DNA from: a virus
Lineage: Duplodnaviria; Caudoviricetes
Length of the DNA: 64,000 bases
IMG/VR virus record: IMGVR_UViG_3300033463_006479
Coordinates: 96,001-160,000 of that record
Reading direction: 5' to 3' (one strand)
The notes beneath the pieces are model-generated. The model searched no databases. It was not told the origin of the DNA and worked only from the letters and a program-made list of their open reading frames with translations. The position numbers and the translations under genes are program-made. This document shows, in pieces, positions 22,529-37,666 of the stretch. Position 1 is the stretch's first letter, and each line of letters starts with the position of its first letter.

Positions 22529-22535
22529 ATATATA

Positions 22536-22607
22536 CGAGAAGCGAAGAATGTTCCAAGTTAAATTGATAGGATTTAATTGTAATTCAAGTTTGCTGTATG
22601 CTTCTCT
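22536..22607 (-). ncRNA. stem-ACAGCAA element
   Basis: GAGAAGC ATACAGCAA ... GCTTCTC. Confidence 0.55.
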
Positions 22608-22631
22608 TTTGTGTTGTTTTATGTCAAAGAA

Positions 22632-23078
22632 CTACCACTTTTCTGGAAACTTAACCGTGAACGGCTGGTTTCTGTAAAGGTATTTGTCATATTGCATTTT
22701 ATGCTTGCGCATATTGTCAAGTTCGGTGAAATCAACCTCAATGGGACATTTTCCGCCAAGTCGGAACAATTTATATTCATATTTTCCTTTGTCCTCGGAA
22801 AACAGATTTCCATTACGAAGTGCATAAAGTGTTTCACGAAGTTCCAACCAGAGTTTCTGGTTTGGCGAGTTTGCGTTTTGTACGGATTTTGGATAAGACT
22901 TCTTGTTTTTCTGCAAATACCCATAACAACGATTCGCATAAGCCTCTCCCAATTTGATTACGCCATAAACTTTGACACGTTTGGGTTCAAACGACATAGA
23001 GAACGAGTTTTCGCAATAGCCGCAGATTTCGCCAGTAGTCAAATCCTTTCTCAATATGACATATCTTCTGTCTTTCAT
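22632..23078 (-). CDS. basic hypothetical protein
   Basis: 148-aa ORF after the early promoter at 23099; boxA-like GTTCTTTGACA follows its stop. Confidence 0.7.
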   Translation of the reverse strand: MKDRRYVILRKDLTTGEICGYCENSFSMSFEPKRVKVYGVIKLGEAYANRCYGYLQKNKKSYPKSVQNANSPNQKLWLELRETLYALRNGNLFSEDKGKYEYKLFRLGGKCPIEVDFTELDNMRKHKMQYDKYLYRNQPFTVKFPEKW

Positions 23079-23098
23079 ATCCGTTTTTGTTTACGCCG

Positions 23099-23165
23099 CA
23101 AAAATACAACAATTATTTCAAATGTCAATACTTTTTCAAAAAAGTTATCAACAGAGTTATCAACA
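23099..23165 (-). promoter_or_regulatory. early promoter with paired upstream repeat
   Basis: ATTG-N19-TATTTTTG; gttatcaacagagttatcaaca. Confidence 0.75.
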
Positions 23166-23531
23166 AGAGGAATCAACAAGACATCCTTCAGAAAACGGCT
23201 TGTCTTCTGGCTTTATGTTATATGGAAAGTCAATAAAGCACAATATACTTGTCTGCGGAACTTTCAATTCATATTCACAAATGACATCTTTCAAAAAGAA
23301 ATTAATCTCAATCTCTGTTTCAAAGTCATATCCAAATCTATCGGAAATCACTTTTCCAAACCAGAGCCTTCCGTCACTTGAAGCATCAAGCGCAGTCCTT
23401 TGTGCTGCCTTTACAGCAACGCCATCCTTAAATCTGATATACTTTTGTAATTGTATGCACCAATAATACTTGTCTTTCAGCTTGTAATATTTGTCAAATT
23501 CTATCATAACATATAATTTAAAGTTGTTCAA
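23160..23531 (-). CDS. hypothetical protein
   Basis: 123-aa ORF. Confidence 0.6.
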   Translation of the reverse strand: MNNFKLYVMIEFDKYYKLKDKYYWCIQLQKYIRFKDGVAVKAAQRTALDASSDGRLWFGKVISDRFGYDFETEIEINFFLKDVICEYELKVPQTSILCFIDFPYNIKPEDKPFSEGCLVDSSC

Positions 23532-23763
23532 CGATTTTTATGAATTTGCCGTTTTTTCTGAAACACATCATATCATCAATGCGGAATTTCCATTTTTTAG
23601 ACCATATAGAAACAACAATAGTGTTATTATTAGGCATACTTATCACTTTACCTTTAAGCCATTGCAACGGCTTTTTTGAAGGAACTTCACAATATGATGT
23701 CGGCAATGCCATTTTAATCCGCATACCGACATACGGCTCGGTTATGTCTTTTTTATTTTTCAT
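23518..23763 (-). CDS. hypothetical protein
   Basis: From MKNKKD, ATGA overlap. Confidence 0.6.
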   Translation of the reverse strand: MKNKKDITEPYVGMRIKMALPTSYCEVPSKKPLQWLKGKVISMPNNNTIVVSIWSKKWKFRIDDMMCFRKNGKFIKIVEQL

Positions 23764-24782
23764 TGTTCTGAAATTATTGGTTTGATTACACGCATACAAT
23801 CTCTTGTAAAATTATATCGGTCAAGATAGTTTCCAGCAACAACAGCATCATAGACTTTTCCAACTTCTGTCGTGCTTTCAACAACATTGGTTGTCGCCGA
23901 TGCGAACTGGTTGTTATCATCAATCATAGAGCATACCATCAAAAGTGGCTGTTTTATATAAACTGGGTTTTTAAATCTGTGAGGCATAATGTAATATACA
24001 TTGTCCTCGCAAGCACAAGACGTACAATACCCACCAATTTTTTCAAGAAATGCTTTTTTCTTGAATGCCAAAGGTTGTGATGATGAAGATAAAAACGACC
24101 AAGAATAGTCAGTATCAGATGTAACAAATGAACTTTTCAAAACCAAAGAGATGTATGGTATTCTTATTGTGTCATTTCTATAAATTATTTGTTTCAATTT
24201 TATTTCACCTTTTAAGTATTTGTCTTTGTATTCCGAATATCCAACGCCATCAAAACCCATATTGTCAAGTATTTCTATAGGTCTTGTGTCATCTGGCATT
24301 TTTGATAATCCGATTTCTGTATTATGGTTATAAAACGCACCGCTTACCAGATTTTGACTAATACACCAAGAACGCATACCCGTAAAAAATTCGCTGTCCT
24401 TATATGTATTCACAGCATTTTGTATCTTTGACAAAGTGCCTTCATAAATGAAATCATCACTATCAAGAGTGAATATCACATCGGAATCACCGTCATAAGA
24501 AGCCAAGTCTATGCACTTGTTACGCATAATGCCATACCTACCATTCTCAACAGAAATACCATCAAGCGGGTCGTGATAGACTTTTATTTTCTCTTTGCAA
24601 TGTTTAAACGAAACGCCTTGCATTTCTACGAAGAATCGTTCAACATATTCTTTGACACAGCCATCTTTTGAATTGTCAAGAATAATCCATTCCCAATCAT
24701 CAAAATCTTGCGAACAAACATTTATAAGACGAGCGTTCTGCCAAGGAACTATTTTATTGCACGGCGTAATTATACTAATCAT
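23760..24782 (-). CDS. glycosyltransferase family 2
   Basis: MISIITP, EWIILDNSKD, LDSDD DxD motif, ED motif. Confidence 0.85.
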   Translation of the reverse strand: MISIITPCNKIVPWQNARLINVCSQDFDDWEWIILDNSKDGCVKEYVERFFVEMQGVSFKHCKEKIKVYHDPLDGISVENGRYGIMRNKCIDLASYDGDSDVIFTLDSDDFIYEGTLSKIQNAVNTYKDSEFFTGMRSWCISQNLVSGAFYNHNTEIGLSKMPDDTRPIEILDNMGFDGVGYSEYKDKYLKGEIKLKQIIYRNDTIRIPYISLVLKSSFVTSDTDYSWSFLSSSSQPLAFKKKAFLEKIGGYCTSCACEDNVYYIMPHRFKNPVYIKQPLLMVCSMIDDNNQFASATTNVVESTTEVGKVYDAVVAGNYLDRYNFTRDCMRVIKPIISEQ

Positions 24783-25051
24783 TGCATATTGTCAAAAAAT
24801 GTTATGATAATGGGTGAATTTTGAATATACGGAAGTGAGCGTATGGTGTTGTATGATATAAAGTCAGCGGCTTCGTCCGCATCCATACCATCAACTTCCA
24901 TAAGATGCTCAATCATCTTGTCGTAGTCATACACAGCCCTGCCGTCATCAGTAAGGCCGACACAAGCAGTGTCATAAGACGGGTCTTCAAAAACAACGGT
25001 TTCCTCATAACCGAAGTTTGACAAAAATTCTTTAAGTTCCTCTTGTTTCAT
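24779..25051 (-). CDS. conserved phage hypothetical protein
   Basis: AVYDYDKMIEHL ... YNTIRSLPY. Confidence 0.75.
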   Translation of the reverse strand: MKQEELKEFLSNFGYEETVVFEDPSYDTACVGLTDDGRAVYDYDKMIEHLMEVDGMDADEAADFISYNTIRSLPYIQNSPIIITFFDNMQ

Positions 25052-25071
25052 ATTATAAATGGTTTAATTTG

Positions 25072-25157
25072 CGGAGGCGGTAGGATTCGAACCTACGGGG
25101 GTTATTAGCCCCAACGGTTTTCAAGACCGCCGCCATAAACCACTCGGCCACGCCTCC
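25072..25157 (-). tRNA. tRNA-Ser(UGA)
   Basis: Loop CTTGAAA, long variable arm. Confidence 0.9.
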
Positions 25158-25192
25158 ATACATATATAATAAAAAATAAATGGAAATGTTTG

Positions 25193-25263
25193 CAGGCAGT
25201 CAAGGACTCGAACCTCAATCTCTGGTTTTGGAGACCAGCATTCTACCATTGAACTAACCACCT
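25193..25263 (-). tRNA. tRNA-Trp(CCA)
   Basis: Loop CTCCAAA. Confidence 0.9.
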
Positions 25264-25401
25264 ATAAGGCGGATATATTACCGACAGCCCGCCACTGTCC
25301 GCCGACACATACGATTCGGTGTTGAATGCGGCAACCTATCGGTTGGCTTCAAGAATGGTACGTTCCAGACTACTTGAGCTCATTTCATCTGACTTTTATT
25401 G

Positions 25402-25484
25402 CGGAGAGCAGTGTACTCGAAACACACTCCATAGGAGCAGCACGTTTAGCAGACGGCTACAGCAGCCTCACTGTTTTACTCTCC
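25402..25484 (-). tRNA. tRNA-Ser(GCU)
   Basis: Loop CTGCTAA, long variable arm. Confidence 0.8.
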
Positions 25485-25491
25485 ATAAAAT

Positions 25492-25641
25492 TGCTTCCAC
25501 GACTGGACTCGAACCAGCAGTACCGCCGCTAATCGTGTTGTCGGCGGGCAACCTTTACGTCTCACTCCCAAGACTACTATCTAACAGACCACGACATCTG
25601 TATCAAGCGTAGGTATACCAAATTCCCTATCACGCAGAAGT
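25492..25641 (-). ncRNA. tRNA-like RNA with expanded anticodon domain
   Basis: Acceptor CTTCTGCG/CGTGGAAG, D arm and GGTTCGAGTCC T arm; ~60 extra nt. Confidence 0.55.
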
Positions 25642-25643
25642 TG

Positions 25644-25718
25644 TGCGAGGTGAGGGATTTGAACCCCCGACTCCCTGCTTGTAGGGCAGGTGTTCTGAAC
25701 CAACTGAACTAACCTCGC
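25644..25718 (-). tRNA. tRNA-Val(UAC)
   Basis: Loop CCTACAA. Confidence 0.9.
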
Positions 25719-25855
25719 AAAAAACACGCCAAACCAGTCTTGTATCGTCAAATTAAACTAACCGCTGGCACAAACCATATGGCATTTTATGGTTGCTTTT
25801 CAAAGGCCAGCAATGTGCCCACAACGAAGGGACACAAACTTTGGCGTTTGTTTTG

Positions 25856-25929
25856 TGCCGCTGGGTGGATTCGAACCACCGTCTCCTCCTTATGAGAGAG
25901 GCGCAAGAAACCACCTCCGCTACAGCGAC
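25856..25929 (-). tRNA. tRNA-Met/Ile2(CAU)
   Basis: Loop CTCATAA. Confidence 0.8.
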
Positions 25930-25949
25930 AGAATTAGTCGCACTATCGC

Positions 25950-27800
25950 AGGACTATAAGCTCCGAAGAACTAAACATAGTCAAAAGTGGTCACACCACT
26001 TTCACTACGTTCACCATCTGATTTGTTCATCAGACTTCTTCGGAACGACAACAGCACATCTTTAACTTTCTCACGTTTGAGTTTTCTCGGTTCGTATGCG
26101 CCGTTGCCAAGTCGTTTTAAGAGCGAATCACGCAACACGGTTACGGTCACTCTGTTCTTTATATTGACAGATGCGTTGTGGTCTGCATTGTCCTTATGCC
26201 CGCATTCAACGCATTCAAAGGTCTCTTGGCTCGGTCTGTTTTCATCTGCGATGCAACCACAAATCGGACACATCTTTGAGGTGTAACTCGCCTGCACTGT
26301 TGACAATGCGATACCATATTTCCTTGCAATGTGTTCAACCTCATCTTTTAGACTGCTCAATCCGAGGAACTTGACCTTTCTATTGTAGTTTATATCCTCG
26401 TTGTCTTTATCCTTGATGTAACACCTTCCAAAACCATTGTCAAGGTCTTCCATAACGATGTGGTCAACACCATCCAACATCAACGACTTGCACATCTTTG
26501 AAATGAGTTCTTGTTCGGATTTCTGCATCTTCATCTTGAGTGTGTCAAGTTTCTGCTGTTTGCGCTTGCCGATGGTGTAGTTCTTGTCTTTCTTCAGTTC
26601 GTCCACTTTCAATGACAGTTTGCAGAAGTCATTGACTAACTTACGGTTGTAGTCATAGGCAGTTTCGTTTGACAGACTGAAGAGATTGTGCTTGCAGTTC
26701 ACGTCAATTCCTACCACGTTGTCTCCTGCTTCTGGTATGTATCTCTGACCATCCTTGCACAAGTTGATATTGACTTGATGGTATTTTTCGTTGAATGTAA
26801 GCACATATTCGTAGTCGGGATTGGATTTGCGGTAGTCATTCATACTTCCGTGCCAATCCTTGTTGAACCTCACTGGGATGTCAAACGACTTTCTTTCGAT
26901 TCCAGACAGACTGACAAAGGAGTTGATTACCGAACCAAACTTCTTGTTGTAGTCAATGATTCTCGTCTTCCTGCACCTGCCTCCGAATGACAATGACTTG
27001 AACTCAATCGGATGCTCGGAATAACAATCGATGATTCTGTTTCGTTTCCGCAAGGCAAGTTCCATAAGTCTGTCAAAACCGAACTTGTTACAGCAACGTA
27101 TGATGTTGTTGTAGAAGTCTCGCTTCTTGTCATCGCAGGTCTCCAACTGCTTGATGATATATTCCAATGTGTTATCGTTTCCGTATCTTGCAAGATAAGT
27201 CAGACAGATTGACAATGGTGTTTTGCTATTCTCCGTTACGACATTCTTCAAGTCGCCTTTCTTGTTCTTCTTGGTGTCACGCTTGTAGAACTCAAATCCG
27301 ACAAATCTTATAACTTCAAAGTCAAGGTGTTTTCGGATTGCTTCAAACTTGTTCTGGTAGCAGTTGAACACTTGTGTATATAGTTGCATATCAAACGAAC
27401 TCGGAATGGCATCCTTGTATCTCGCCCTCATCCCCTTCAAGAAGTCGAATTTTGAATATTCAAGGTACTTTTCAAGATTGGAGTTCACATATTCGGAAAC
27501 AAGGTTCTTATGGTCACGCAGCATAACAGCAAACGAATGTAAATCGTCATACTTCTGACGTGTTAAGTCGTTTGACTTGAATGTTTTTGTGTATTTGCTG
27601 TCTATGACCATATTACAATAAAAAAGAGGCATTAAACTTGCGGCAGTAATGCGAGGAGTGCCATCAAGGATAAAACCTCTGTATATCTTTATTGTTATTT
27701 TGAAACGACTCCTCGCTTTCGTTTCATTATATAAATAGTCTTAAACTATAATATATTTATACGAGTTACTTTTGAACATTTTTGACTACTTTTGAATAGG
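25950..27800 (-). mobile_element. non-autonomous tnpB element (IS607/IS200-605-like)
   Basis: CCT at both junctions, three ~10-bp TCAAAA repeats at the left end, hairpin GACTATG..TTCG..TATAGTC at the right end, no tnpA. Confidence 0.55.
25971..27632 (-). CDS. tnpB: large TnpB/Cas12f-like RNA-guided nuclease
   Basis: RuvC-I VGIDVN, RuvC-II IVMEDL, CPICG/CVECG Zn finger, RuvC-III ADHNASVNI. Confidence 0.85.
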   Translation of the reverse strand: MPLFYCNMVIDSKYTKTFKSNDLTRQKYDDLHSFAVMLRDHKNLVSEYVNSNLEKYLEYSKFDFLKGMRARYKDAIPSSFDMQLYTQVFNCYQNKFEAIRKHLDFEVIRFVGFEFYKRDTKKNKKGDLKNVVTENSKTPLSICLTYLARYGNDNTLEYIIKQLETCDDKKRDFYNNIIRCCNKFGFDRLMELALRKRNRIIDCYSEHPIEFKSLSFGGRCRKTRIIDYNKKFGSVINSFVSLSGIERKSFDIPVRFNKDWHGSMNDYRKSNPDYEYVLTFNEKYHQVNINLCKDGQRYIPEAGDNVVGIDVNCKHNLFSLSNETAYDYNRKLVNDFCKLSLKVDELKKDKNYTIGKRKQQKLDTLKMKMQKSEQELISKMCKSLMLDGVDHIVMEDLDNGFGRCYIKDKDNEDINYNRKVKFLGLSSLKDEVEHIARKYGIALSTVQASYTSKMCPICGCIADENRPSQETFECVECGHKDNADHNASVNIKNRVTVTVLRDSLLKRLGNGAYEPRKLKREKVKDVLLSFRRSLMNKSDGERSESGVTTFDYV

Positions 27801-27898
27801 TTTATCAACTTCTGTTGCTATCCCAAAGCGTCCGACTTCACGGAAGGAATCCTCACGTGCTGAACTCCTATAATATCATTAAAAATATGAAAAACTTG

Positions 27899-27981
27899 GG
27901 CGTAGGGTGGGATTCGAACCCACATATAGAATAAATCCACAGAGCCACAATCTGTTGCATAGCCATTCTGCCACCTACGCC
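27899..27981 (-). tRNA. tRNA-His(GUG) with long variable region
   Basis: Loop TTGTGGC, G-1:C73 pair. Confidence 0.8.
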
Positions 27982-27986
27982 ATATA

Positions 27987-28341
27987 TTAAAATTTTATTT
28001 TTCTACCATTACCATTTTTATCTTTAACAGAAACTGTATTTTTCATAGATTTCCAACCATAATCACCTCCAGTTTTCATATTATAACACATTATATCTTT
28101 GACTAAAAAATCGGTTACAATTTCTGATTCATACGCAAATGCTTCTTCGGCAGAATCAAAAAAAACAAACAATTTCTTTTTTAAAGTTTTCAATACCATA
28201 TTTTTTATAAGCATATCGCAAACGCCGCCCACTGCCCATATATCCATCATCTAAATTGTTTGTGTTATGAACACCATAATAAAAATGATTATTTATGCAA
28301 TTTGTTATTTTATAAAAATAATGATATTTGTATGTTTTCAT
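27987..28341 (-). pseudogene. GIY-YIG (Seg-like) homing endonuclease, frameshifted
   Basis: [20 protein letters not shown] in one frame, AFAYESEIV..YNMKTGG in another; shift at a homopolymer near 28160; TATAAATA at 28363. Confidence 0.75.
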
Positions 28342-28421
28342 TATCGAACTTTATTGTTATATTATTTATAATGTCAAAAGTTCGACAATTCCCATTATAA
28401 TGTCGTTATAACAAAAAAATC

Positions 28422-28509
28422 CGTGCGGGTGAGACTCGAACTCACAATGTGCGTTTGCGGGACTTTTCTTTTTCAAGAAAGTTGCGGATACCGTTCCGCA
28501 TACCCGCAC
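28422..28509 (-). ncRNA. tRNA-like RNA with non-canonical anticodon arm
   Basis: Intact acceptor, D and T arms; arm ACTTTCTTGAAAAAGAAAAGT has no 7-nt loop. Confidence 0.6.
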
Positions 28510-28721
28510 AGATTATGGTTTGCCGTTCTTTCACGGCAGTCATCGGATATTTTGGTGAGGGCGGTTATCCGTAACCGCAATATTATGGAAAATTAACAAC
28601 GTCAAACAAATTATGCGCCATATAACTCATATTTTAAATTATGTATCATATAACGCATAATCTTCGTCTCTCCGAAATGTCGCCACGCATTCTTTATACT
28701 CGTTGGTGTGGTTGAACGAGT

Positions 28722-28794
28722 TGTAGCCACAGCAGGACTCGAACCTGCGGCCTGCTGGTTGTCCAGCTTATCTACCACTGATATATGCGGCTAC
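28722..28794 (-). ncRNA. tRNA-like RNA with 4-nt anticodon loop
   Basis: GCTGG-ACAA-CCAGC arm; extended acceptor GTAGCCGCA/TGTGGCTAC. Confidence 0.65.
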
Positions 28795-28859
28795 GGGAGC
28801 AGTGTGCGTTGCTCCCAACAGCAGGCTATCGCACACGACCTGCTGTTTGTCAAAAAGTC

Positions 28860-28957
28860 TGCAAGGAGGGTAAAAGAGTCGAACTTTTTAATAACCATTA
28901 TGAAAGGTTGCTGTAGTTTTCTATGATACAAGAAAAACAATCATAACCTCCGTTGCA
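28860..28957 (-). ncRNA. tRNA-like RNA carrying a permuted ACAGCAA module
   Basis: TTTTTCTTG..AGAAAAC TACAGCAA inserted 5' of a CAT loop; T loop GTTCGACT. Confidence 0.5.
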
Positions 28958-28965
28958 GACTATTG

Positions 28966-29038
<73 letters not shown>

Positions 29039-29047
29039 TAACACAAG

Positions 29048-29119
29048 AGCGGTGTATGAGAATCGAACTCACATCTCTGGCTTGGCAAGCCAGCGCACTA
29101 ACCGTTGTGCTAACACCGC
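29048..29119 (-). tRNA. tRNA-Gly(GCC)
   Basis: Loop TTGCCAA. Confidence 0.9.
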
Positions 29120-29136
29120 ATTTGAAGCCAATGGCA

Positions 29137-29421
29137 TTATCGTATAATTATGTCATTGATTTCTTCAAACGGAACGAAAACGTCATAGCCGTCATCGTCC
29201 TCAAAATGGTTAATTTCTTCTTTGAACCAAAATCCGAATTTGTATCTGTCATATACGAATGTTTCGCCATTCCATTCAGCCATATTAGCATTGCGGCAAA
29301 CACCGTTATATCTACGACCGACCTTCAATTCGGATTTCGGTATGGGTTTTATAGAATTAATGTCCTTTTTGTTTATGCCAGCATAAATTCTGGCTTTTCT
29401 GTCAAGTTCGTTTTTATCCAT
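29137..29421 (-). CDS. conserved phage hypothetical protein
   Basis: YNGVCRNA..AEWNG..FVY.RYKFG..HFEDDDGYDVFVP. Confidence 0.75.
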   Translation of the reverse strand: MDKNELDRKARIYAGINKKDINSIKPIPKSELKVGRRYNGVCRNANMAEWNGETFVYDRYKFGFWFKEEINHFEDDDGYDVFVPFEEINDIIIR

Positions 29422-29432
29422 TTGGATTGTTT

Positions 29433-30338
29433 TTAGTCACTGACATTCGGTTTGTTGCCGATTGCACCAGTGAATTTGTTAGTAAGTTCAAGAAGTTCAT
29501 TCTTATTCATATTGATAACACAGCATTTCATTTTGCTGTTCGGGTCAACCAGATATGCGCCAAGCCATCTGTGATGTCCGTCAAGAATGAAATTGTCTTT
29601 TGACACGATTGTGATGGGGCTTTTGTCATTTGGTTTAAGCAACCAGTCCATACCTTCTTTCGTGGGTTCTTCCTTGCCACCGAGAGGGATTGCCATATAG
29701 ATACTCTTTATGAAGAAAATCTGTTCTTGGATTGGTTTCAGTTTGCTGACTGGAATATCAACGACAGCACCACTGACTTGTTCCTTTTTATCTCCGTCAC
29801 CAGCTGTGAGCCATTTTTTACTCAATTCTTCGTCTTTGTCCAAATCAGCCTGCACCTTTTTTGCAAGTTCTTTATCCTCGCCGATAACATCAATGAAACC
29901 GTGTTGCAATAAGAACTTCAATGTAAGAACTTGGTTTGCCATAACCGTTTTTCTTTTGTTGTGGTCTTCAACACCACCATCTTCCAAAGCATCATCCATC
30001 ATTTCTGTTCTCGGTGCGCTTTCCTCATCTTCTTTTCCCTTACCAACACCTTTGAAGTTTGAATTGTTGATTACTGGCATTTCGCCACGTTTGTAAACAC
30101 CGAATTTGTCGGCAAATTTTTTTGCTGAATCATAATTGGCTTTAAAAGTTTCCTCATTATCGTATATTTCGGAAAACTTGTCATCAAGCATTTCTTTTGC
30201 AACCTCAACTGCTTTGTCAGCGTTTGTTTTGCGAAGTTCCAGTTTCGCATATTTTTTTCTCACCTCATTGGCTTTTGCGTAAGTATATTCTTCGTTGATG
30301 TGTCTACTTCTAAATTCGTTAAATTTCAATATCTTCAT
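29433..30338 (-). CDS. ParB/Srx-like domain protein, putative virion-internal
   Basis: ILDGHHRW motif; MKILKFNEFRSRHINE N-terminus; TATAAATA at 30359. Confidence 0.75.
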   Translation of the reverse strand: MKILKFNEFRSRHINEEYTYAKANEVRKKYAKLELRKTNADKAVEVAKEMLDDKFSEIYDNEETFKANYDSAKKFADKFGVYKRGEMPVINNSNFKGVGKGKEDEESAPRTEMMDDALEDGGVEDHNKRKTVMANQVLTLKFLLQHGFIDVIGEDKELAKKVQADLDKDEELSKKWLTAGDGDKKEQVSGAVVDIPVSKLKPIQEQIFFIKSIYMAIPLGGKEEPTKEGMDWLLKPNDKSPITIVSKDNFILDGHHRWLGAYLVDPNSKMKCCVINMNKNELLELTNKFTGAIGNKPNVSD

Positions 30339-30376
30339 AACAGTAATTTTTTATGATATATTTATACGACATAAAA

Positions 30377-31355
30377 TCACAATAAATCCACATCAACTTC
30401 TTTGTGCTCCAATATCAAATGCGGTTTATATCCAAGTCTTTCATACTCTAAAAACTTATCTTTCATATTTTGCAAGTTCAATGTCCAATTGGATTTTATT
30501 TCAAATATCTCATTAGTTGTCGGTATGAAAAAATCTGGTATGGCGCATTTATATTTGTTTGTCAATGTATCAAAATACTTAATTCGTAAACATTCTACGT
30601 CATAATCAATTTTTTGCAAATCTAATATTTTTGCAAAATCTAATTCATACGAAGACCTCAAATAAACACGTTTTGCCATTCCAAGTAGTATGCCAACAAT
30701 TTTTATAAGGGCACGAGTCTTTTTCTGATTTGACATTTATTTTACCAAGTATATATGCTTCAGATAAAGATTTGCTGTGATTTCTTGTTTGTATATCCAA
30801 TGATTTCAATATTTTATGAAAATTGGAAATACCAGAATTATATCCATATTTATCTGATAATGTTTTATCATCAATATGATTTGCATATTCTTGTTTTATC
30901 AAGCAAACAGTTTTATCATATTCATAAAAAATATCAGTTGTTCCAATTTTACTTTTATCAAAACCAAATATGGCTAATGTATTAAAAATCCTATATTTAT
31001 TGCAAATGTCTGGTCTTTCACAATGACCTTTTTCTGCGCCGCACCATTTACATTTTTTTATTTTCGTATTTTTTGATTTATTTGTGTGTAATGTGTTTAA
31101 TAATGTGGCCTTTTGTTTTTCCCTACTTTCTTTTGTTCTTATTTTATTGTTATATTTAGCAGCGCAATTTGTCGAACAAAATTTATTGCTCTTTTTATCA
31201 TAAGGTAATAACTTTCCACAACAACTACAACAATTTGGGTTTTTATAATAGTCGGATATGCGTTTATCTTTTTGTTCGTTTCTTGTTTTTAATGACGCTA
31301 AAAATCCAAGTTTTCCAGCTTCAGATTCACTTAATCCATTTCTTTGTTTTGGCAT
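30377..31355 (-). pseudogene. homing-endonuclease-like gene (Zn fingers plus TnsA-like PD-(D/E)XK), frameshifted near 30670
   Basis: CCSCC..FCSTNCAA, CKWCG; RSSYE..IPDF..EIKS in a second frame; TATAAATA at 31373. Confidence 0.7.
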
Positions 31356-31391
31356 ACAAATATATATTATATTATTTATATGTCAAATTTG

Positions 31392-31464
31392 AGCCAGTAG
31401 AGGGATTCGAACCCCCGATTTCATCGTTACAAAGGATGCTCCGTAACCACTTGGATATACTGGC
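31392..31464 (-). tRNA. tRNA-Thr(UGU)
   Basis: Loop TTTGTAA. Confidence 0.85.
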
Positions 31465-31668
31465 AACAAAGGTGATAGCAGATGTGTCTCGGATTCGCAC
31501 CTTTTACTGATTGTCTGTACACAACAATGCAGTTATCATTTAGCATTGTACGGCTTGCGCAAACCGAACAACGGCGATTTTATACCCGACCATACTCGTT
31601 GTCACTATCCGCATTACTGGGTGCGTTCCATCCACGGAACGGTGACCATTTCTTGCGTTTTAACCTTG

Positions 31669-31753
31669 TCGGACTGGGGGACTCGAACCCCCAACACGGA
31701 TTTTCCAGTTTTCTCTGGCGTGCTACCACGATACGCAGTTAACGTATAGTCCG
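31669..31753 (-). ncRNA. atypical tRNA-like RNA
   Basis: CGGACT/AGTCCG acceptor, GGGGGTTCGAGTCCCCC T arm, CCAG-AGAAAA-CTGG arm. Confidence 0.55.
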
Positions 31754-31763
31754 TTATGTTAGG

Positions 31764-31837
31764 TCAGCAGGATAGGACTCGAACCTATAACCCGTTGATT
31801 AGAAGTCAACCGTTCTAATCCATTGAACTACCTGCCG
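31764..31837 (-). tRNA. tRNA-Arg(UCU)
   Basis: Loop CTTCTAA. Confidence 0.9.
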
Positions 31838-32237
31838 ATTTTTAGCACGCACAGACAGCGTACTTTTTTGCTGTATGGGATGTTCATTCTTTACTTTCCG
31901 TGAACTCACCTCCGTCCGCTCTCCCGACTTTTTAACCGTATAGTTTCGCTGGCGACATCACTTCCAGCATAGCCATTCCTCTGTTATACTCATCTTGGCT
32001 GCACGAGTGGCTTTGCGTTTTATCCTTTCTGGCCAACAAGTTTGTCTGTATGATAAACAGCCAATCCAAGAGTTCCGTAGTCACTTGGAAGCACCGAAAT
32101 CCCGCCACTTATATTCAGCGGACTAAAGCGTACCAATCCGATGGTTGCCATATTTCTGCCGTTTTCCCGTACCGACACCATTTTGTCGTGGTTATGTTCG
32201 GCACACAACTCGCTTGGCTGTTATGCTGTTTTTATTG

Positions 32238-32310
32238 TGGGTTAGGTGGGACTCGAACCCACTACCCCATCCTTAAAAGGGATGTGCTCTACCAGATGAG
32301 CTACTAACCC
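32238..32310 (-). tRNA. tRNA-Lys(UUU)
   Basis: Loop CTTTTAA. Confidence 0.9.
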
Positions 32311-32424
32311 GTTCCTCGCCTACTGATGCATCCTCGGCGAGAGTTTCTCGGTTTTTTAACTCGAAAAACCGATGAATCGTAAAAACGGCTCGTCTTATAG
32401 GAGACGTGAGCCAAAAACTGGCCG

Positions 32425-32508
32425 TGGTCGAGGCGGGAGTTGAACCCGCACGTCCTTTCGGACGAAGGTTTTTGAGACCTTTGCGTCTACCAGTTCCGCC
32501 ACTCGACC
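32425..32508 (-). tRNA. tRNA-Leu(CAA)
   Basis: Loop CTCAAAA, long variable arm. Confidence 0.9.
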
Positions 32509-32583
32509 AAAAAACCAACAGCGGTTATTCATCATTGATGGATTTGTATCCCTACCTGCTTTCTACAAAGTGCAGGACGAGGC

Positions 32584-32781
32584 TCATTCGCCGCAGCCCC
32601 TCGTTTTGGCAATATGCTGGTTCGTTTCATTTCGCCGTTGAATTTCATCAACAAGTTCAAGATATTCTTCAGCTGATGGTGATGTGTTGTGAAGATGCTT
32701 GTACTTTGAAAGTTTTTCATCAAGTTCTTCACGGCTCATATTTTCAAGTTTTTGTTTAAGGATTTCCGTTGTTTTATCCAT
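32584..32781 (-). CDS. small hypothetical protein
   Basis: From MDKTTEIL within the tRNA array. Confidence 0.5.
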   Translation of the reverse strand: MDKTTEILKQKLENMSREELDEKLSKYKHLHNTSPSAEEYLELVDEIQRRNETNQHIAKTRGCGE

Positions 32782-32811
32782 ATATGTTATGTTTTTGTTT
32801 TCTGATATGTG

Positions 32812-32896
32812 TGGCTTGGGCGGGACTCGAACCCGCACGCCCGCAATGGGCAACAGATTTTAAGTCTGTCGTGTCTACCAATTCCACCACCAAGCC
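32812..32896 (-). tRNA. tRNA-Leu(UAA)
   Basis: Loop CTTAAAA. Confidence 0.9.
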
Positions 32897-32907
32897 AGAC
32901 AATCAAG

Positions 32908-32991
32908 TCGGCGAGGCGGGGGTCGAACCCGCACGCCCTTTCGGGCACTTGCTCCTAAAACAAGCACGTCTGCCAATTCCGCCACTCACCG
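32908..32991 (-). tRNA. tRNA-Leu(UAG)
   Basis: Loop TTTAGGA. Confidence 0.9.
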
Positions 32992-33001
32992 CAATATAAT
33001 G

Positions 33002-33075
33002 TCGATAAGGTGGGATTCGAACCCACAATAACACGAATCTGAATCGTGTGCGTCTGCCAGTTGCGCCACTCATCG
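33002..33075 (-). tRNA. tRNA-Leu(CAG), short variable arm
   Basis: Loop TTCAGAT. Confidence 0.8.
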
Positions 33076-33096
33076 TTTGATATTCATATTCGTTTG

Positions 33097-33180
33097 TGGT
33101 CGAGGCGGGATTTGAACCCGCATACCCTTTCGGGCAACAGTCCCTCAAACTGCCGTGTCTGCCAATTCCACCACTCGACC
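33097..33180 (-). tRNA. tRNA-Leu(GAG)
   Basis: Loop TTGAGGG. Confidence 0.9.
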
Positions 33181-33348
33181 ATTTTGTCAGTTCTTCCATC
33201 GGACGATTATACTGACAACCCAATCCACCGATTTTCGTACACTTTCCAAGTATGTCGGCAACTTCCAGCCGCTCACACGGACTGGTTACGGTACGTGACC
33301 GTGAGAATGTGCGGATAATAACACACTTTCTTCCTTGCCAGGTCGGAG

Positions 33349-33420
33349 AGCAGGTGATGGGAATCGAACCCACATTTCCAGCTTGGAAGGCTGAAGCACT
33401 AACCGTTGTGCTACACCTGC
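33349..33420 (-). tRNA. tRNA-Gly(UCC)
   Basis: Loop CTTCCAA. Confidence 0.9.
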
Positions 33421-33558
33421 ATAAAGAAAGATGGCTGGTTTGTCGTTATGCCAGCAAAGCACGCTTCCGCCATACTTCAAACGGGGTTTCACACCTCGTT
33501 ACATCTTTTTAGCCACCGAGCGTTTGACCGATTTCGCCATCGCCATACCAATATAGTA

Positions 33559-33633
33559 TGCACGAGCAGGACTTGAACCTGCATTCATCGCAAACCACTG
33601 CGACCGTCCGAGTTGAACGGAACTGATTCGGTG
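33559..33633 (-). ncRNA. atypical tRNA-like RNA
   Basis: T arm GCAGGTTCAAGTCCTGC; TCGCA-GTGGTT-TGCGA arm with 6-nt loop. Confidence 0.5.
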
Positions 33634-33638
33634 TTCTG

Positions 33639-33710
33639 TAGCGGAGGACGGAATCGAACCGCCGACCTCAAGGTTATGAGCCTTACGAGCTACCTCTGCT
33701 CCACTCCGCA
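33639..33710 (-). tRNA. tRNA-fMet(CAU)
   Basis: Loop CTCATAA, 1:72 mismatch. Confidence 0.8.
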
Positions 33711-33883
33711 CTATTAAAAACTGGCGGCGGCGTTGTGGCTTATACGTAAATCACCACACCTTTGATTTCAGATTTTAGGCCAGTTCGGATTTTCGTGTTT
33801 ATATCAAAAACAAGAAATGCGAAACAGACTTCACATCATCCTATAACCATTAAGTCAAAAGAACAACGTTTGACACCAGTTTG

Positions 33884-33959
33884 TTGAACCGATTGGATTC
33901 GAACCAACGCAGCACAAAGTTAATTGTGTCGTGCTACCGAAATGTTACACCACGGTTCA
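33884..33959 (-). ncRNA. tRNA-like RNA with 6-nt anticodon loop
   Basis: Normal acceptor, D and T arms; CACAA-TTAACT-TTGTG. Confidence 0.6.
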
Positions 33960-33987
33960 TCCGTTTGTATGGAAATGAAAAAAATTG

Positions 33988-34103
33988 ATTGGCAGGCAGG
34001 AGTCGAACCCACACATCGGTCTTGGACAAGATTAAATACTGCTGATAATTTCTTTGGCCAAGAAACATTTTCTTACCGTGCTCTACCTTTAAGCTACTGC
34101 CAA
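33988..34103 (-). ncRNA. tRNA scaffold with ACAGCA-type insertion in the anticodon arm
   Basis: CGGT..ACCG stem enclosing GTTTCTTG-GCCA-AAGAAAT TATCAGCAG. Confidence 0.6.
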
Positions 34104-34207
34104 ATGTCCGTTTTCGTTTTGTCCTCCTTGCAAATAATGAGCTCCTCATCCAAGGCTGGTTGTTGCACTATGTCGAAATACGGTAAAGAACACTACAACC
34201 TTTCACG

Positions 34208-34292
34208 TGGGGGAGGAGGGATTCGAACCCCCTGTGTTTCTATGTAACGGATTTACAGTCCGCCGCCCTTCCACCATCAGAGCAGCTCCCCC
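34208..34292 (-). tRNA. tRNA-Tyr(GUA)
   Basis: Loop CTGTAAA, long variable arm. Confidence 0.9.
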
Positions 34293-34303
34293 ATTTACGC
34301 CAA

Positions 34304-34807
34304 CTATTTGCTGGCGATTTCTTTTACTGCATTTGCGATAACACCATTGTTCGCATTAGGATATTTAACCTTCACTCTTGCGATAATATCTTTGGTATAT
34401 CGTTGCAGTTGTTTAGTGTCAAACGTTTCACCATTGTTGTTTTTTTCAGAAACAAGTATATCAACTTGCTTTTCGGTTTCATTGCGAACTTCCTCAACGC
34501 TCGGCTCTTTCGGCAAGAGTTTTTCAAGTTCAGAAGCCTCAAATTCGTTCACCTTTCTGTTTTCAACGGCTATTTTGTTGTCATCACCAGCCTTGGCAAA
34601 CTCCTGCGCAGCCGTGCGGCAACGTTTCAGCATAGAACGGAGAATTTCAGTTTCCTTTTCGTCATTAGGAAGTTTTGTTCCGTTATGCACGGCGTTCACC
34701 ATTTCGGTCTTGACACCTTTCCAGAAATTCGTTTTTAATTTCACGGCGCAGTCTTTTTCTTCAAACATAGCGTCCGCAATGTGTTTGTCAAGCGTTTCAA
34801 AAATCAT
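34304..34807 (-). CDS. GatB/YqeY domain protein
   Basis: LDKHIADAM.EKD ... EILRSMLKR ... E...LEKLLPKEPS.EEV ... A..G.IA..VK. Confidence 0.75.
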   Translation of the reverse strand: MIFETLDKHIADAMFEEKDCAVKLKTNFWKGVKTEMVNAVHNGTKLPNDEKETEILRSMLKRCRTAAQEFAKAGDDNKIAVENRKVNEFEASELEKLLPKEPSVEEVRNETEKQVDILVSEKNNNGETFDTKQLQRYTKDIIARVKVKYPNANNGVIANAVKEIASK

Positions 34808-34834
34808 AACTTTGTGTTTTTATTGTTGTTTTTG

Positions 34835-34907
<73 letters not shown>

Positions 34908-34960
34908 ATTCAGATAAAGGACATTTGAATATTTTAACCAATAAACTATACAGCCTTGTT

Positions 34961-35063
34961 AGACCATAACACGGACTCGAACCGCTCGGTTGCTTTGTCG
35001 TGCACAACTCCGCAACCAATTTCTTCCAAACCACACGATATTTGCAACTATCACGTGTTGTCT
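34961..35063 (-). ncRNA. degenerate tRNA-like RNA
   Basis: T arm CGGTTCGAGTCCG with a non-canonical body. Confidence 0.35.
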
Positions 35064-35072
35064 TTATCTTGG

Positions 35073-35146
35073 TGGACACTGGTGGGACTTGAACCCACGA
35101 CATCCTGCTTGCAAGGCAGGCGTTCTTCCAACTGAACTACAGGCCC
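35073..35146 (-). tRNA. tRNA-Ala(UGC)
   Basis: Loop CTTGCAA. Confidence 0.85.
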
Positions 35147-35443
35147 AAAAGTGCAGCATACCGAAGTTTTTGCAATGTGCATCGGCCTCTATCGCTGCTG
35201 CGGCGAAAAAGCCTCTTTAGTTATTCGGTGAGGCTTGATTTCCGTTCACGCTCGTTTTGCTGCGGAAGTTTACTCGCATCGTGGAATTGTCACCACGCTC
35301 TCCCGCTTTGTGGCGGGAATGTCACTTGACACTTATACGCCTCAACTTTCCAATGCCGTCCGTTTTCGAAAATTATAATTTCGGTTTCGGCATATCAGCA
35401 CAAGTCAGCGATGCTTGAACACCAGTCTGCAAGCACTGTGTTG

Positions 35444-35515
35444 TTGTCCCGACCAGAATCGAACTGATATTACTTGTGCCAAAAACAAGTGTAATAGCCA
35501 TTATACCACAGGACA
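35444..35515 (-). tRNA. tRNA-Gln(UUG)
   Basis: Loop TTTTGGC. Confidence 0.85.
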
Positions 35516-35647
35516 TTACAAGCAACCGTTTTTATCTCTCGGATAGGTTGCTCACCTGCACCGCTTCCTTTTTTATGTTTCCGTGGCACTGCGGTTTTGA
35601 CACGGCGAAACGAGGTTTTACACAAAAATTGTTAAAGTCAAAGAAAA

Positions 35648-35710
35648 CAAGGTGCATATGGAAATAACAAATTTAGGTGTTGTTTGGAATAATGTTGCTG
35701 TACGCACCTT
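35648..35710 (-). ncRNA. stem-ACAGCAA element
   Basis: AAGGTGCG TACAGCAA ... TGCACCTTG. Confidence 0.6.
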
Positions 35711-35752
35711 TTGAACTATAAATTAACTATGAATGAAAAATGCCATAAAAAA

Positions 35753-35816
35753 CAAGACACACAAAAAAGATTCAAAGTGACAGTTTGATTTTTTTATGAA
35801 TTGCTGTATGTGTCTT
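35753..35816 (-). ncRNA. stem-ACAGCAA element with Asp(GUC) anticodon stem-loop
   Basis: AAGACAC ATACAGCAA .. TCAAA-CTGTCAC-TTTGA .. GTGTCTTG. Confidence 0.65.
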
Positions 35817-35818
35817 TG

Positions 35819-35920
35819 CGTATCTGGCAGGAGTCGAACCTGCGCCCTTGAGGATATGCCTCACGTTCTTACCGACATCTCCACGTTGGAATCCCACCAA
35901 CGCTTCACCACTACAGATAC
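35819..35920 (-). ncRNA. atypical tRNA-like RNA
   Basis: GTATCTG/CAGATAC acceptor, T arm, extra hairpin in the D region, 5-nt loop TGAGG-CATAT-CCTCA. Confidence 0.55.
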
Positions 35921-36000
35921 TGACAGAGGATAGGTTTGTTAAAACTATATGTGATTTGCAACTCAACATAAAGCTGTAACAATTAACATCATTCTGTTTG

Positions 36001-36074
36001 CGGTGTGTACGGGACTTAAACCCGTGACCTCCGCCGTGACAGGGCGGCATTCTAATCAACTGAACTAACACACC
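36001..36074 (-). tRNA. tRNA-Asp(GUC)
   Basis: Loop CTGTCAC. Confidence 0.85.
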
Positions 36075-36080
36075 ATTTTG

Positions 36081-36205
36081 TCGGGGGTGGTGGATTCGAA
36101 CCACCATAACGGCTACCCAAAAGCAAAATTGAAATAAAATTGCTGTCCAATTCTCATACAAGAATCGTCAAAAAAATACGTGTCCTACCATTAGACGAAC
36201 CCCCG
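36081..36205 (-). ncRNA. tRNA scaffold with ACAGCAA insertion replacing the anticodon arm
   Basis: CGGGGGT acceptor, D and T arms intact; ATTCTTG-TAT-GAGAAT TGGACAGCAA inside. Confidence 0.6.
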
Positions 36206-36214
36206 TTAAAAAAA

Positions 36215-36282
36215 CAAGATACTAAAAATGTAGCGATTTCAAATTACGAGTTTGATGCTTTTGTTTTTGCTGTATGTATCTT
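36215..36282 (-). ncRNA. stem-ACAGCAA element with Thr(CGU) anticodon stem-loop
   Basis: AAGATAC ATACAGCAA .. TCAAA-CTCGTAA-TTTGA .. GTATCTTG. Confidence 0.65.
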
Positions 36283-36313
36283 TGGTTTTCATAATGATAT
36301 ATACTGACTGTTG

Positions 36314-36513
36314 CAGACGGCAAAGGAATCGAACCTTTGAATCTTCACCATATCAAGAGCCTACTTTGTCGGTTAGTTGACTGACAACCGTGATGATAAC
36401 TATAAACCGATTGTTTCGGAACTTATACCCGTTCATATTCCAGAACGGTGACGTGTCGCCACGCCCCACATCTTGATACGGAATTGACGCATTTCCGTTT
36501 ATGCTATCCGTCT
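36314..36513 (-). ncRNA. tRNA scaffold with ~130-nt structured insertion
   Basis: AGACGG/CCGTCT acceptor, GCAT..ATGC D arm, T arm; CCGTATCAAGA/TCTTGATATGG helix encloses the insert. Confidence 0.6.
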
Positions 36514-36647
36514 ATTAAAAAGTGCAGGAAACCATTGTTTGCTGGGATTGGTCTGACTATGAGTAAAGTAATGATGGAAATGACCAGTCGCCACAAATGT
36601 TTGTGTTTATTACTGATGTCTAAAACTGCACTTATATTTTAATGATG

Positions 36648-37058
36648 TTATTTCTTTTTCCAATGTGATTTAATCCCTCCGCATTTTCTACTGCAACAAG
36701 GATTTGGGTGCGTTGATAAATTACGTTTATCAAAAATGAATTTCTCACCACAAACTGGACAAACACATTCAATAAAAGTTTTTGATTGTTTCTTTTTTGA
36801 ATTATTTTGTCTTTTTGATATAACTTGTAAGTTCTCTATCCTATCATCCATTCTATCACCATTTATGTGGTCAACTTCATCATCATTTGCCACATCACAA
36901 CTATAATATGAAGTATAAAGATATTTTGCATAAGACATTGAATGTTTTTCGCCATTTGCATATTTCATAGTTGCAACTCTTCTGGGTTCTTTGTTTATAT
37001 TTACATAAACACTGGTTACACCTTTATTTTTATAGTATTCACTAACATCAATTTTCAT
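36648..37058 (-). CDS. HNH homing endonuclease
   Basis: VDHINGDRMDDRIENLQ..N; C-terminal CPVCG..CCSRKC. Confidence 0.85.
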   Translation of the reverse strand: MKIDVSEYYKNKGVTSVYVNINKEPRRVATMKYANGEKHSMSYAKYLYTSYYSCDVANDDEVDHINGDRMDDRIENLQVISKRQNNSKKKQSKTFIECVCPVCGEKFIFDKRNLSTHPNPCCSRKCGGIKSHWKKK

Positions 37059-37077
37059 AACAAGTTTAATTTGCTTG

Positions 37078-37151
37078 TAGCGATGGCGGGACTTGAACCC
37101 GCAACCTCCTGCTTATAAGGCAGGTCCTCTAACCATTAAGGATACACCGCT
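37078..37151 (-). tRNA. tRNA-Ile(UAU)
   Basis: Loop CTTATAA. Confidence 0.85.
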
Positions 37152-37197
37152 ATCTTGTCGTTCTATAAATTATGTATAAACGAACAATCAAGGAAAA

Positions 37198-37271
37198 CAA
37201 GACACTTTGAAATAGCGTATTCATATTAAAAGTATGGTGCTTGTTCATTTAAGGATTGCTGTAAGTGTCTT
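37198..37271 (-). ncRNA. stem-ACAGCAA element with Lys(UUU) anticodon stem-loop
   Basis: AAGACAC TTACAGCAA .. CATA-CTTTTAA-TATG .. GTGTCTTG. Confidence 0.65.
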
Positions 37272-37273
37272 TG

Positions 37274-37346
37274 TCCACCCGCAGGGATTCGAACCCCAAT
37301 CTTGAGTTCCGTAGACTCACGTTCTAATCCGTTGAACTACGGGTGG
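37274..37346 (-). tRNA. tRNA-Arg(ACG)
   Basis: Loop CTACGGA. Confidence 0.88.
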
Positions 37347-37351
37347 TTTTG

Positions 37352-37426
37352 CGGGGGAGGTGAGACTCGAACTCACAACCATCGGCTTAACAGGCCGCCG
37401 CTCTGACCGATTGAAGCTACTCCCCC
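37352..37426 (-). tRNA. tRNA-Asn(GUU)
   Basis: Loop CTGTTAA. Confidence 0.88.
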
Positions 37427-37432
37427 GTTTTG

Positions 37433-37504
37433 TAGTCCCAGCGGGAATCGAACCTGCATTTAGAGTTTAGGAAACTCTCGTTCTGTCCGTTGAACTATAG
37501 GACT
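37433..37504 (-). tRNA. tRNA-Arg(CCU)
   Basis: Loop TTCCTAA. Confidence 0.88.
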
Positions 37505-37510
37505 GGATTA

Positions 37511-37590
37511 CAAGGTGCTGGGTAACGAATAACAAAAATGAAACAGAATTTTAATTGTAAATGCTATGATATTTTTGCTGTATGCACCTT
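37511..37590 (-). ncRNA. stem-ACAGCAA element
   Basis: AAGGTGC ATACAGCAA ... GCACCTTG. Confidence 0.6.
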
Positions 37591-37592
37591 TG

Positions 37593-37666
37593 TGGATACT
37601 GGTGGGACTTGAACCCACGACATCCTGCTTGCAGGGCAGGCGTTCTCCCAACTGAACTACAGACCC
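37593..37666 (-). tRNA. tRNA-Ala(UGC), second copy
   Basis: Loop CCTGCAA; near-identical to 35073-35146. Confidence 0.85.

Follow-up and report, generated by a model that had tools for sequence, protein, structure and literature searches.

In a giant rumen phage of the class Caudoviricetes, six short DNA elements share a design that we call the handle: their two ends pair in a helix, and the 5′ half of this helix is followed by the motif ACAGCAA. The window analysed here is a stretch of 64,000 nucleotides (nt), positions 96,001 to 160,000 of the 192-kb IMG/VR virus record IMGVR_UViG_3300033463_006479 (38% G+C, 70% complete according to CheckV). Comparison with phage and bacterial genomes makes it likely that the six elements are small non-coding RNA genes of a widespread, uncatalogued family, and that their products are Y-RNA-like partners of a Ro60-like protein, freed by the processing of neighbouring tRNAs. 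The candidate partner is a protein with the domains DUF2828 and vWA, whose gene accompanies the handle across many phages and gut bacteria.

Six handle RNAs in a tRNA operon

The order of parts is the same in all six elements: a 5′ arm, one variable base, U, ACAGCAA, 39-56 variable AU-rich bases, the 3′ arm and a G (Table 1). The arms form a perfect closing helix of 7-9 bp in every case, and four different arm sequences are used to build it. An earlier sequence-only reading had described six such elements, with compensatory changes in the stem and a 3′ G. All of them were found, on the minus strand, each starting one base to the right of the position given there. The sequence TACAGCAA has 18 copies in the window where 2.95 are expected, which is an about six-fold over-representation; none of 100 shuffles reaches 18.

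A covariance model was built on five elements, with the closing helix as its sole structure. It recovers the sixth element and nothing else in the window (six matches at E 3e-5 or better, the next at E 0.37). The whole 192-kb record contains no handle copies beyond these six. At gathering thresholds, the Rfam matches in the window are tRNAs only. A permissive scan of the cluster at 35400-37800 (E up to 10) gave no match on the handles, nor did a scan of eight bacterial loci (E up to 0.1). The sequence-only reading had named a full match to a characterised Rfam family as a finding that would speak against it; no Rfam family matches the handle. Neither ARAGORN nor Rfam calls any of the six elements a tRNA, and T-loop and D-loop motifs are absent from them.

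At least 30 tRNA genes lie in the window, every one on the minus strand, and five of the six elements occupy tRNA-sized slots of this operon. Handle RNA 1 lies 3 nt downstream of tRNA-Ala (37594-37666) and 7 nt upstream of tRNA-Arg(cct) (37432-37504). RNA 2 begins 1 nt past tRNA-Arg(acg), RNA 3 ends 10 nt ahead of a tRNA-like gene (36081-36205), and RNA 4 abuts the 3′ end of a 102-nt tRNA-like gene (35819-35920). RNA 6 is found apart from the main cluster, 12 nt past the stop of an open reading frame (ORF). Because the elements are packed tightly between tRNAs, excision of the neighbouring tRNAs would release RNAs of 60-80 nt. The ends of handle RNAs 1 and 2 would then be given by the processing sites of the flanking tRNAs. 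Across viral loci, a tRNA follows within 10 nt downstream of the handle in 66 of 201 cases.

A widespread RNA family

An earlier scan of viral contigs with a degenerate pattern returned mostly chance matches; with the covariance model, clustered copies appeared in other phage contigs. Scans with gapped two-arm patterns then matched more than 107 stretches of viral sequence and at least 120 of bacterial genomes; all bacterial figures given below refer to 120 listed loci. In 2 Mb of viral loci there are 322 distinct elements, compared to 22 in reversed-sequence controls. The base after the 3′ arm is a G in 96% of the 272 distinct elements with a typical arm, and the scan did not demand this G. 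In these 272 elements the outer pairs of the closing helix (A-U, A-U, G-C) are conserved, the inner pairs vary, and the bases that follow ACAGCAA are rich in A and U. The handle motif is conserved on one strand only.

Handle pairing is not a product of the search design. At ACAGCAA sites outside the collection patterns, a perfect 7-bp partner is present in 347 of 872 cases, compared to 53 with reversed arms and 47 with shuffled arms. The 347 pairing sites contain 126 different arm sequences. The covariation predicted by the sequence-only reading is also present. In a model alignment of 28 members from 12 sources, 100% of the helix cells pair, and both sides change at four of the seven pairs. 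The covariation score of this alignment is not equalled by any of 500 shuffles, and controls with slid arms pair in 32-60% of cells. No publication describing the family was found in the literature searched.

What the handle encloses, which we call the payload, differs from member to member. Of the 272 payloads, 18 are called as tRNAs by ARAGORN, 46 have a T arm, 64 consist of an anticodon-type hairpin alone and 144 are unclassifiable. About 30 of the T-arm payloads run from a T arm through a closed acceptor-like hairpin to a D arm, the layout of a circularly permuted tRNA, as known for YrlA RNA (10.1101/312249). About one in four family members elsewhere has a tRNA-like module; the elements in the window lack it and have anticodon hairpins at most.

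Anticodon loops change on a constant stem

The payloads do display anticodon hairpins, and not at random. Among short payloads, 64 of 208 hold an anticodon-type hairpin, compared to 14.5 +/- 4.5 in shuffles, and the commonest loops are those of Lys UUU (17) and Asn GUU (10). The three canonical 7-nt anticodon loops that had been reported for the window (Asp GUC, Thr CGU and Lys UUU, without D or T arm) were confirmed, with stems of 5, 5 and 4 bp. The Lys and Asp loops are the loops of the phage's own tRNA-Lys and tRNA-Asp, on different stems.

A complete relative of 413 kb (G042), whose terminase is 81% identical, has a tRNA array syntenic with that of the window and three handle RNAs. One hairpin stem is common to four RNAs from the two phages and carries four loops: Thr CGU, Asp GUC, Lys UUU and Tyr GUA. 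In the element that follows tRNA-Arg(acg), both phages display Lys UUU, although stems and closing arms are not the same. From the sequences compared, this looks like selection on which anticodon loop is displayed.

The putative partner protein has a predicted Ro60-like fold

Clustering of the ORFs of the bacterial loci shows one protein family, with the domains DUF2828 and DUF7788, encoded within 8 kb of the handles at 88 of the 120 loci. DUF7788 overlaps a vWA domain, and the DxSxS motif of its MIDAS site is invariant. Of 216 handles at bacterial loci with the gene, 215 have its orientation and 191 are upstream of it, at a median gap of 162 nt. No tRNA lies within 8 kb at 49 of the 80 bacterial loci that were scanned for tRNAs. 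Hence the link between handle and DUF2828 is independent of tRNA arrays.

The same holds for phages. All 41 other large viral contigs with handles that were tested encode a DUF2828 protein with DUF7788/vWA (5 of 5 and 36 of 36), and none of 14 control genomes has a DUF2828 match at an E value of 0.001 or below. The gene adjoins the RNA cluster in four viral contigs of the initial five. The sequence-only reading had proposed to look for a co-occurrence of the elements with TROVE or DUF2828 genes. DUF2828 does co-occur with them; TROVE (PF05731) is absent from the record of the window and from the five further phages with handles in which it was sought.

An AlphaFold model of the protein of the 413-kb relative (predicted local distance difference test, pLDDT, 87.7) was used in a fold search, in which Ro60 structures were the only full-length matches. 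They come from Thermus phage phiLo, Xenopus, human and Deinococcus (Rsr), with E values of 2e-10 to 2e-6. A PDB sequence search with the DUF2828 protein gave no match. Co-occurrence, co-orientation and the fold match provide strong comparative support for the suggestion, made by the sequence-only reading, of a protein-binding handle that presents variable payloads and is the putative Y-RNA-like partner of a Ro60- or DUF2828-like protein.

The complete relative encodes its DUF2828 and vWA protein about 200 kb from its tRNA array. Therefore the copy of the phage studied here most likely lies on the missing part of its genome, and the RNAs would act in trans. The earlier statement was right that the window shows no such protein gene, and it holds for the entire 192-kb record.

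Further genes recur beside the bacterial handles. The RNA ligase RtcB is encoded in 33 of the 120 loci and a WYL regulator also in 33. Five more protein families occur in 15-30 of the 120 loci (for example L317:4716-6200, L292:5501-7048, L294:3249-4643, L252:5333-6520 and L268:2366-3565). They have no match in Pfam, NCBIfam or PHROG and may be components of the bacterial system.

A proposed model of the particle

We propose an RNA of two modules. The constant module is the handle, whose ends pair in a 7-bp helix of variable sequence in which pairing is kept, and which would present single-stranded N-U-ACAGCAA on the 5′ side and G on the 3′ side. The interchangeable module is the payload. In the window it is either an isolated anticodon hairpin or an AU-rich stretch without structure; elsewhere it is a whole tRNA-like body or a permuted one like that of YrlA.

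Handle RNAs would be transcribed within the tRNA operon. RNase P and 3′ processing enzymes would then excise the neighbouring tRNAs and so free the handle RNAs. Once free, the handle would bind the ring-shaped Ro60-like protein (DUF2828 and vWA), which in this lineage would be encoded elsewhere in the genome. The payload may draw factors that recognise tRNAs to the particle, or it may be the target of such factors. The field of action is most likely a conflict over tRNA integrity during infection, be it tRNA surveillance, repair or protection, because the payloads mimic tRNAs, the phage copies are set in tRNA operons and RtcB is encoded at about a quarter of the bacterial loci.

Several observations weigh against this model. 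DUF2828 is absent from the 192-kb record according to both a Pfam model and a search with a phage homologue, and so is TROVE; hence the partner is deduced from the relative. The likeness between DUF2828 and Ro60 is one of fold only, with 10-18% identity and a template modelling (TM) score of about 0.5. In sequence, the handle differs from every Ro60 site tested, namely the Rfam consensus of the YrlA stem and the CGAA motif (PMC12135203). A canonical anticodon loop is absent from three of the six payloads (37512, 35649 and 22537). Just 1 of 31 phage records with handles encodes RtcB; the case for repair therefore depends on the bacterial loci. Finally, adjacency to the DUF2828 gene in bacteria would also fit a cis-regulatory role.

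Alternative explanations

One refinement of the two-module model, which the sequence-only reading had named as an example, is compatible with the same particle. The hairpins could be competitive substrates or sensors for host anticodon nucleases, with the closing helix holding the cut halves together until a ligase reseals them. PrrC, PARIS, retron-type nucleases and colicin E5 attack the tRNAs for Lys, Tyr, Asp and Asn, and some of these enzymes can cut stem-loop minihelices. Such a decoy would explain the enrichment of anticodon-type hairpins with Lys UUU and Asn GUU in the lead, the swapping of Thr, Asp, Lys and Tyr loops on a single scaffold stem, the match of Lys and Asp loops to the phage's own tRNAs, and the presence of RtcB at bacterial loci and directly beside the gene in Listeria phage WIL-1. 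Against it, at least half of the short payloads and three of the six in the window are devoid of an anticodon hairpin, many payloads are YrlA-type tRNA bodies that have no anticodon arm, and RtcB is rare in phages. We consider decoys of this kind rather unlikely. A bolder version is less probable again: a counter-defence particle in which a Ro60-like ring offers, as bait or re-sealable decoys, an exchangeable set of anticodon loops (those of Lys, Thr and Asp in this phage; in relatives also Tyr and Asn), and which also belongs to an ancient class of ribonucleoproteins (RNPs) common to phages, bacteria, giant viruses and amoebae.

The position of most bacterial handles, just upstream of the DUF2828 gene and on its strand, is also what one would expect of operators in the mRNA leader that are bound by the gene's own product and are not free RNAs. 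Autoregulation of this kind is very unlikely. The handles of the window and of its relative are in a tRNA operon, roughly 200 kb from the gene in the relative. Some copies lie downstream of the gene, arrays comprise up to five or more handles with differing payloads, and tRNA-like modules would be superfluous for a leader.

Helix and motif could instead be an RNase signal or spacer for tRNA maturation, and the association with DUF2828 a side effect of tRNA proximity. The elements are indeed packed tightly between tRNAs, and a handle often begins right past an encoded CCA. But handles and the DUF2828 gene occur together at bacterial loci that have no tRNA nearby, and most tRNAs of these arrays have no adjoining handle, which makes a processing element highly improbable.

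Scarcely credible are decayed tRNA genes or miniature inverted-repeat mobile DNA without a function as RNA: tRNA-sized slots are occupied and RNA 3 (36216-36282) resembles a handle-enclosed tRNA-Thr of another phage minus its D and T arms, but compensatory changes maintain pairing across 126 arms, the motif is conserved on one strand with the elements on the strand of neighbouring genes, and the handle is kept across phages of very different hosts.

Other identities were rejected. Self-cleaving ribozymes (hammerhead, twister, hatchet, pistol and those like hepatitis delta virus/theta) were weighed since the elements abut tRNA 3′ ends; there is no Rfam match, and only about nine bases are conserved. 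Promoters or terminators, integron attC sites, IS200/IS605 hairpins, retron msr and type III antitoxin repeats do not fit long variable loops, a single conserved strand and tRNA slots.

Comparison with known RNA systems

The closest known systems are those of Ro60 (Rsr) and Y RNA: the YrlA and YrlB RNAs of bacteria and mycobacteriophages (RF02553; PMC4201824), Deinococcus Yrn1, and the Ro60 of Thermus phage phiLo with Yrl1 and Yrl2 (PMC12135203). Like a Y RNA, the handle RNA is modular, its ends are paired in a stem and the conserved bases are on the 5′ strand. In Y RNAs, it is mainly this conserved side of the stem that Ro60 binds (bioRxiv 10.1101/312249). As in YrlA, the other module can mimic a tRNA in family members found elsewhere, many of them with the permuted layout; in the window it offers anticodon hairpins at most. 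RNA genes are found beside the gene for a ring protein composed of a helical repeat domain and a vWA domain with a MIDAS site. Both systems occur in phages and bacteria, sometimes together with RtcB. A phage Ro60 with upstream Y-like RNAs binds the host's polynucleotide phosphorylase (PMC12135203).

The differences are equally clear. The partner belongs to Pfam DUF2828/DUF7788 and not to TROVE. The ACAGCAA handle takes the place of the YrlA stem consensus or the CGAA motif. In contrast to YrlA, the payload can shrink until just an anticodon hairpin or no recognisable feature is left. It does so in the window, where the RNAs are inside a tRNA operon and, unlike Y RNAs, probably far from the protein gene. 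The Rfam YrlA model (RF02553) gives no match on the six elements at E up to 10. In two elements of relatives it aligns to the payload alone (model positions 23-85 and 24-84; 25.8 and 44.5 bits, with a gathering score of 69) and never to the handle. Membership in YrlA fails because both the handle and the protein family differ.

Judged by sequence, the handle strikingly resembles the Class I RNAs of dictyostelids. These RNAs close with a short stem between their two ends, which covaries, and directly after its 5′ half comes a conserved single-stranded motif (PMC7919456). The published search pattern contains an 11-nt motif that ends in U-ACAGCAA (PMC5054030). Its last eight bases (U and ACAGCAA) are present in all six elements at the same place; its first three bases, like the stem sequence, are different. 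Like the handle RNAs, Class I RNAs are about 60 nt long, with an end-joining stem that covaries, a variable remainder and many gene copies. They measure about 42-65 nt with a stem of 6 bp, compared to 62-79 nt and a helix of 7-9 bp with compensatory changes in the window. The Class I stem has a different sequence and a conserved 5′ G, unlike the handle. Class I genes are eukaryotic and have their own upstream promoter element (DUSE), whereas the window elements are part of a phage tRNA operon. The known binding protein of Class I RNAs is Rnp1A, an RNA recognition motif (RRM) protein, and the class has been reported as unique to Dictyostelia. The Class I family of Rfam gives no match on the window cluster at E up to 10.

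The third point of comparison is tRNAs and small RNAs derived from tRNAs that tRNA-processing enzymes set free. The stable species 1 and 2 RNAs of the tRNA cluster in phage T4 and mascRNA are examples. Handle RNAs share with them the tRNA-sized operon slots, a 7-bp terminal helix, in some cases a canonical 7-nt anticodon loop, and ends that probably result from RNase P and 3′ processing. Unlike them, handle RNAs have no D and T arms, no encoded or obvious CCA end and no tRNA detection by ARAGORN or Rfam, and they carry the conserved ACAGCAA after the helix.

Cultured phages and published expression data

A tblastn search with the DUF2828 protein finds 711 GenBank phage records, among them Felix O1-type, P100/A511-type, Staphylococcus, Vibrio and Campylobacter phages. 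GenBank labels the protein as hypothetical, RNA-binding, vWFA or Ro-like. Two of the 711 records were checked for handle RNAs beside the gene. In a Felix O1-type Salmonella phage, the tRNA cluster that closely follows the gene contains four handle RNAs, and a permuted tRNA body is enclosed by one of these. In Listeria phage WIL-1, three handle RNAs are directly ahead of the gene, and RtcB follows it. In the GenBank records inspected, the handle RNAs are unannotated or mis-annotated as tiny ORFs.

A multi-omics study has been published on CKA15, a close relative of WIL-1. The Ro-like protein CKA15_055 was detected in purified virions with 20 peptides and 57% coverage (PMC12282133). The most abundant phage transcripts map to the 2 kb or less upstream of the Ro-like gene, and the authors suggest possible Y RNAs (PMC12282133). 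The handle trio maps to 25,276-25,567 of the CKA15 genome (OR088597.1). The single highly transcribed region for which the study states coordinates, 26.2-26.7 kb, is a different non-coding stretch of about 550 nt. The coordinates of high transcription miss the trio; thus expression of the handles is plausible, and PMC12282133 does not prove it.

In WIL-1 the corresponding 550-nt stretch (1920-2500 of locus L359, about 26.2-26.7 kb of CKA15) lies between tRNA-Pro and tRNA-Met, and a sigma-A-type promoter precedes the non-coding sequence. By coordinates it matches a region that is among the most-read of the CKA15 genome (PMC12282133). It could be a large structured RNA.

Implications

Handle RNAs and DUF2828 probably form an undescribed kind of Y-RNA particle, which here would show bare anticodon hairpins. 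Ro60 and Y RNAs are a classic and poorly understood RNA surveillance system. If our model is true, then there is a second, far more widespread microbial Ro60/Y RNA system that uses a different protein family and a different RNA handle. Cultured and tractable phage-host pairs would open it to direct study.

The swapping of anticodons on a constant stem would point to the anticodon loop as the functional surface and tie the particle to the contest between phage tRNAs and host defences that cut tRNAs. The likeness of the handle to that of Class I RNAs yields a concrete hypothesis for an RNA class of obscure mechanism. If the ancient shared RNP class existed, the 20-year-old puzzle of the Class I RNAs would gain a testable protein partner. 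To the family as a whole, the window adds its most reduced payloads, the swapping of anticodon loops on one scaffold and a case of RNAs probably far from the protein gene.

Neighbourhood of the handle RNAs in the window

Table 1. Handle RNAs and adjacent tRNA features, in window coordinates.
Feature	Length (nt)	Position	Strand	Description
Handle RNA 1	79	37512..37590	-	Arms AAGGUGC/GCACCUU, then AU-ACAGCAA; AU-rich payload, canonical anticodon loop absent
Handle RNA 2	73	37199..37271	-	9-bp closing helix and ACAGCAA; payload hairpin with loop CUUUUAA (Lys UUU)
Handle RNA 3	67	36216..36282	-	Payload hairpin with stem AUCAAA/UUUGAA and loop CUCGUAA (Thr CGU)
Handle RNA 4	63	35754..35816	-	Payload stem as in RNA 3; loop CUGUCAC (Asp GUC)
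Handle RNA 5	62	35649..35710	-	Arms as in RNA 1; payload without clear structure
Handle RNA 6	70	22537..22606	-	Arms GAGAAGC/GCUUCUC; payload hairpin with non-canonical 7-nt loop CCUAUCA
Flanking tRNA genes Arg acg, Asn, Arg cct, Ala		37273..37666	-	tRNA call
tRNA-like RNA, possible related element		36081..36205	-	Rfam tRNA, 39 bits; acceptor, D and T arms intact; two hairpins and ACAGCAA replace the anticodon arm

The tRNA-like RNA at 36081-36205 may be a tRNA body into which the handle motif has been grafted. Two further unusual RNAs share the array. The tRNA-like gene at 35819-35920 (minus strand), 92% conserved in the 413-kb relative and not called by ARAGORN, has an acceptor stem, a T arm and a long, odd middle. 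At 36313-36513 (minus strand) there is a tRNA-Gly(ccc) with an insertion of 120 nt, detected in the intron mode of ARAGORN and 81% conserved in the same relative.

The array also holds a tnpB gene (25971-27632, minus strand; 553 amino acids, Cas12f1-like TNB domain) and a gene for an HNH endonuclease (36648-37058, minus strand). An ORF of 167 amino acids between tRNA genes (34304-34807, minus strand) has a weak, sub-threshold match to a YqeY/GatB-like tRNA-related domain (E 1e-4). Between handle RNA 6 and tRNA-Cys, about 460 nt (22078-22536, minus strand) have no Rfam match at gathering thresholds and no convincing ORF, and are richer in G+C.

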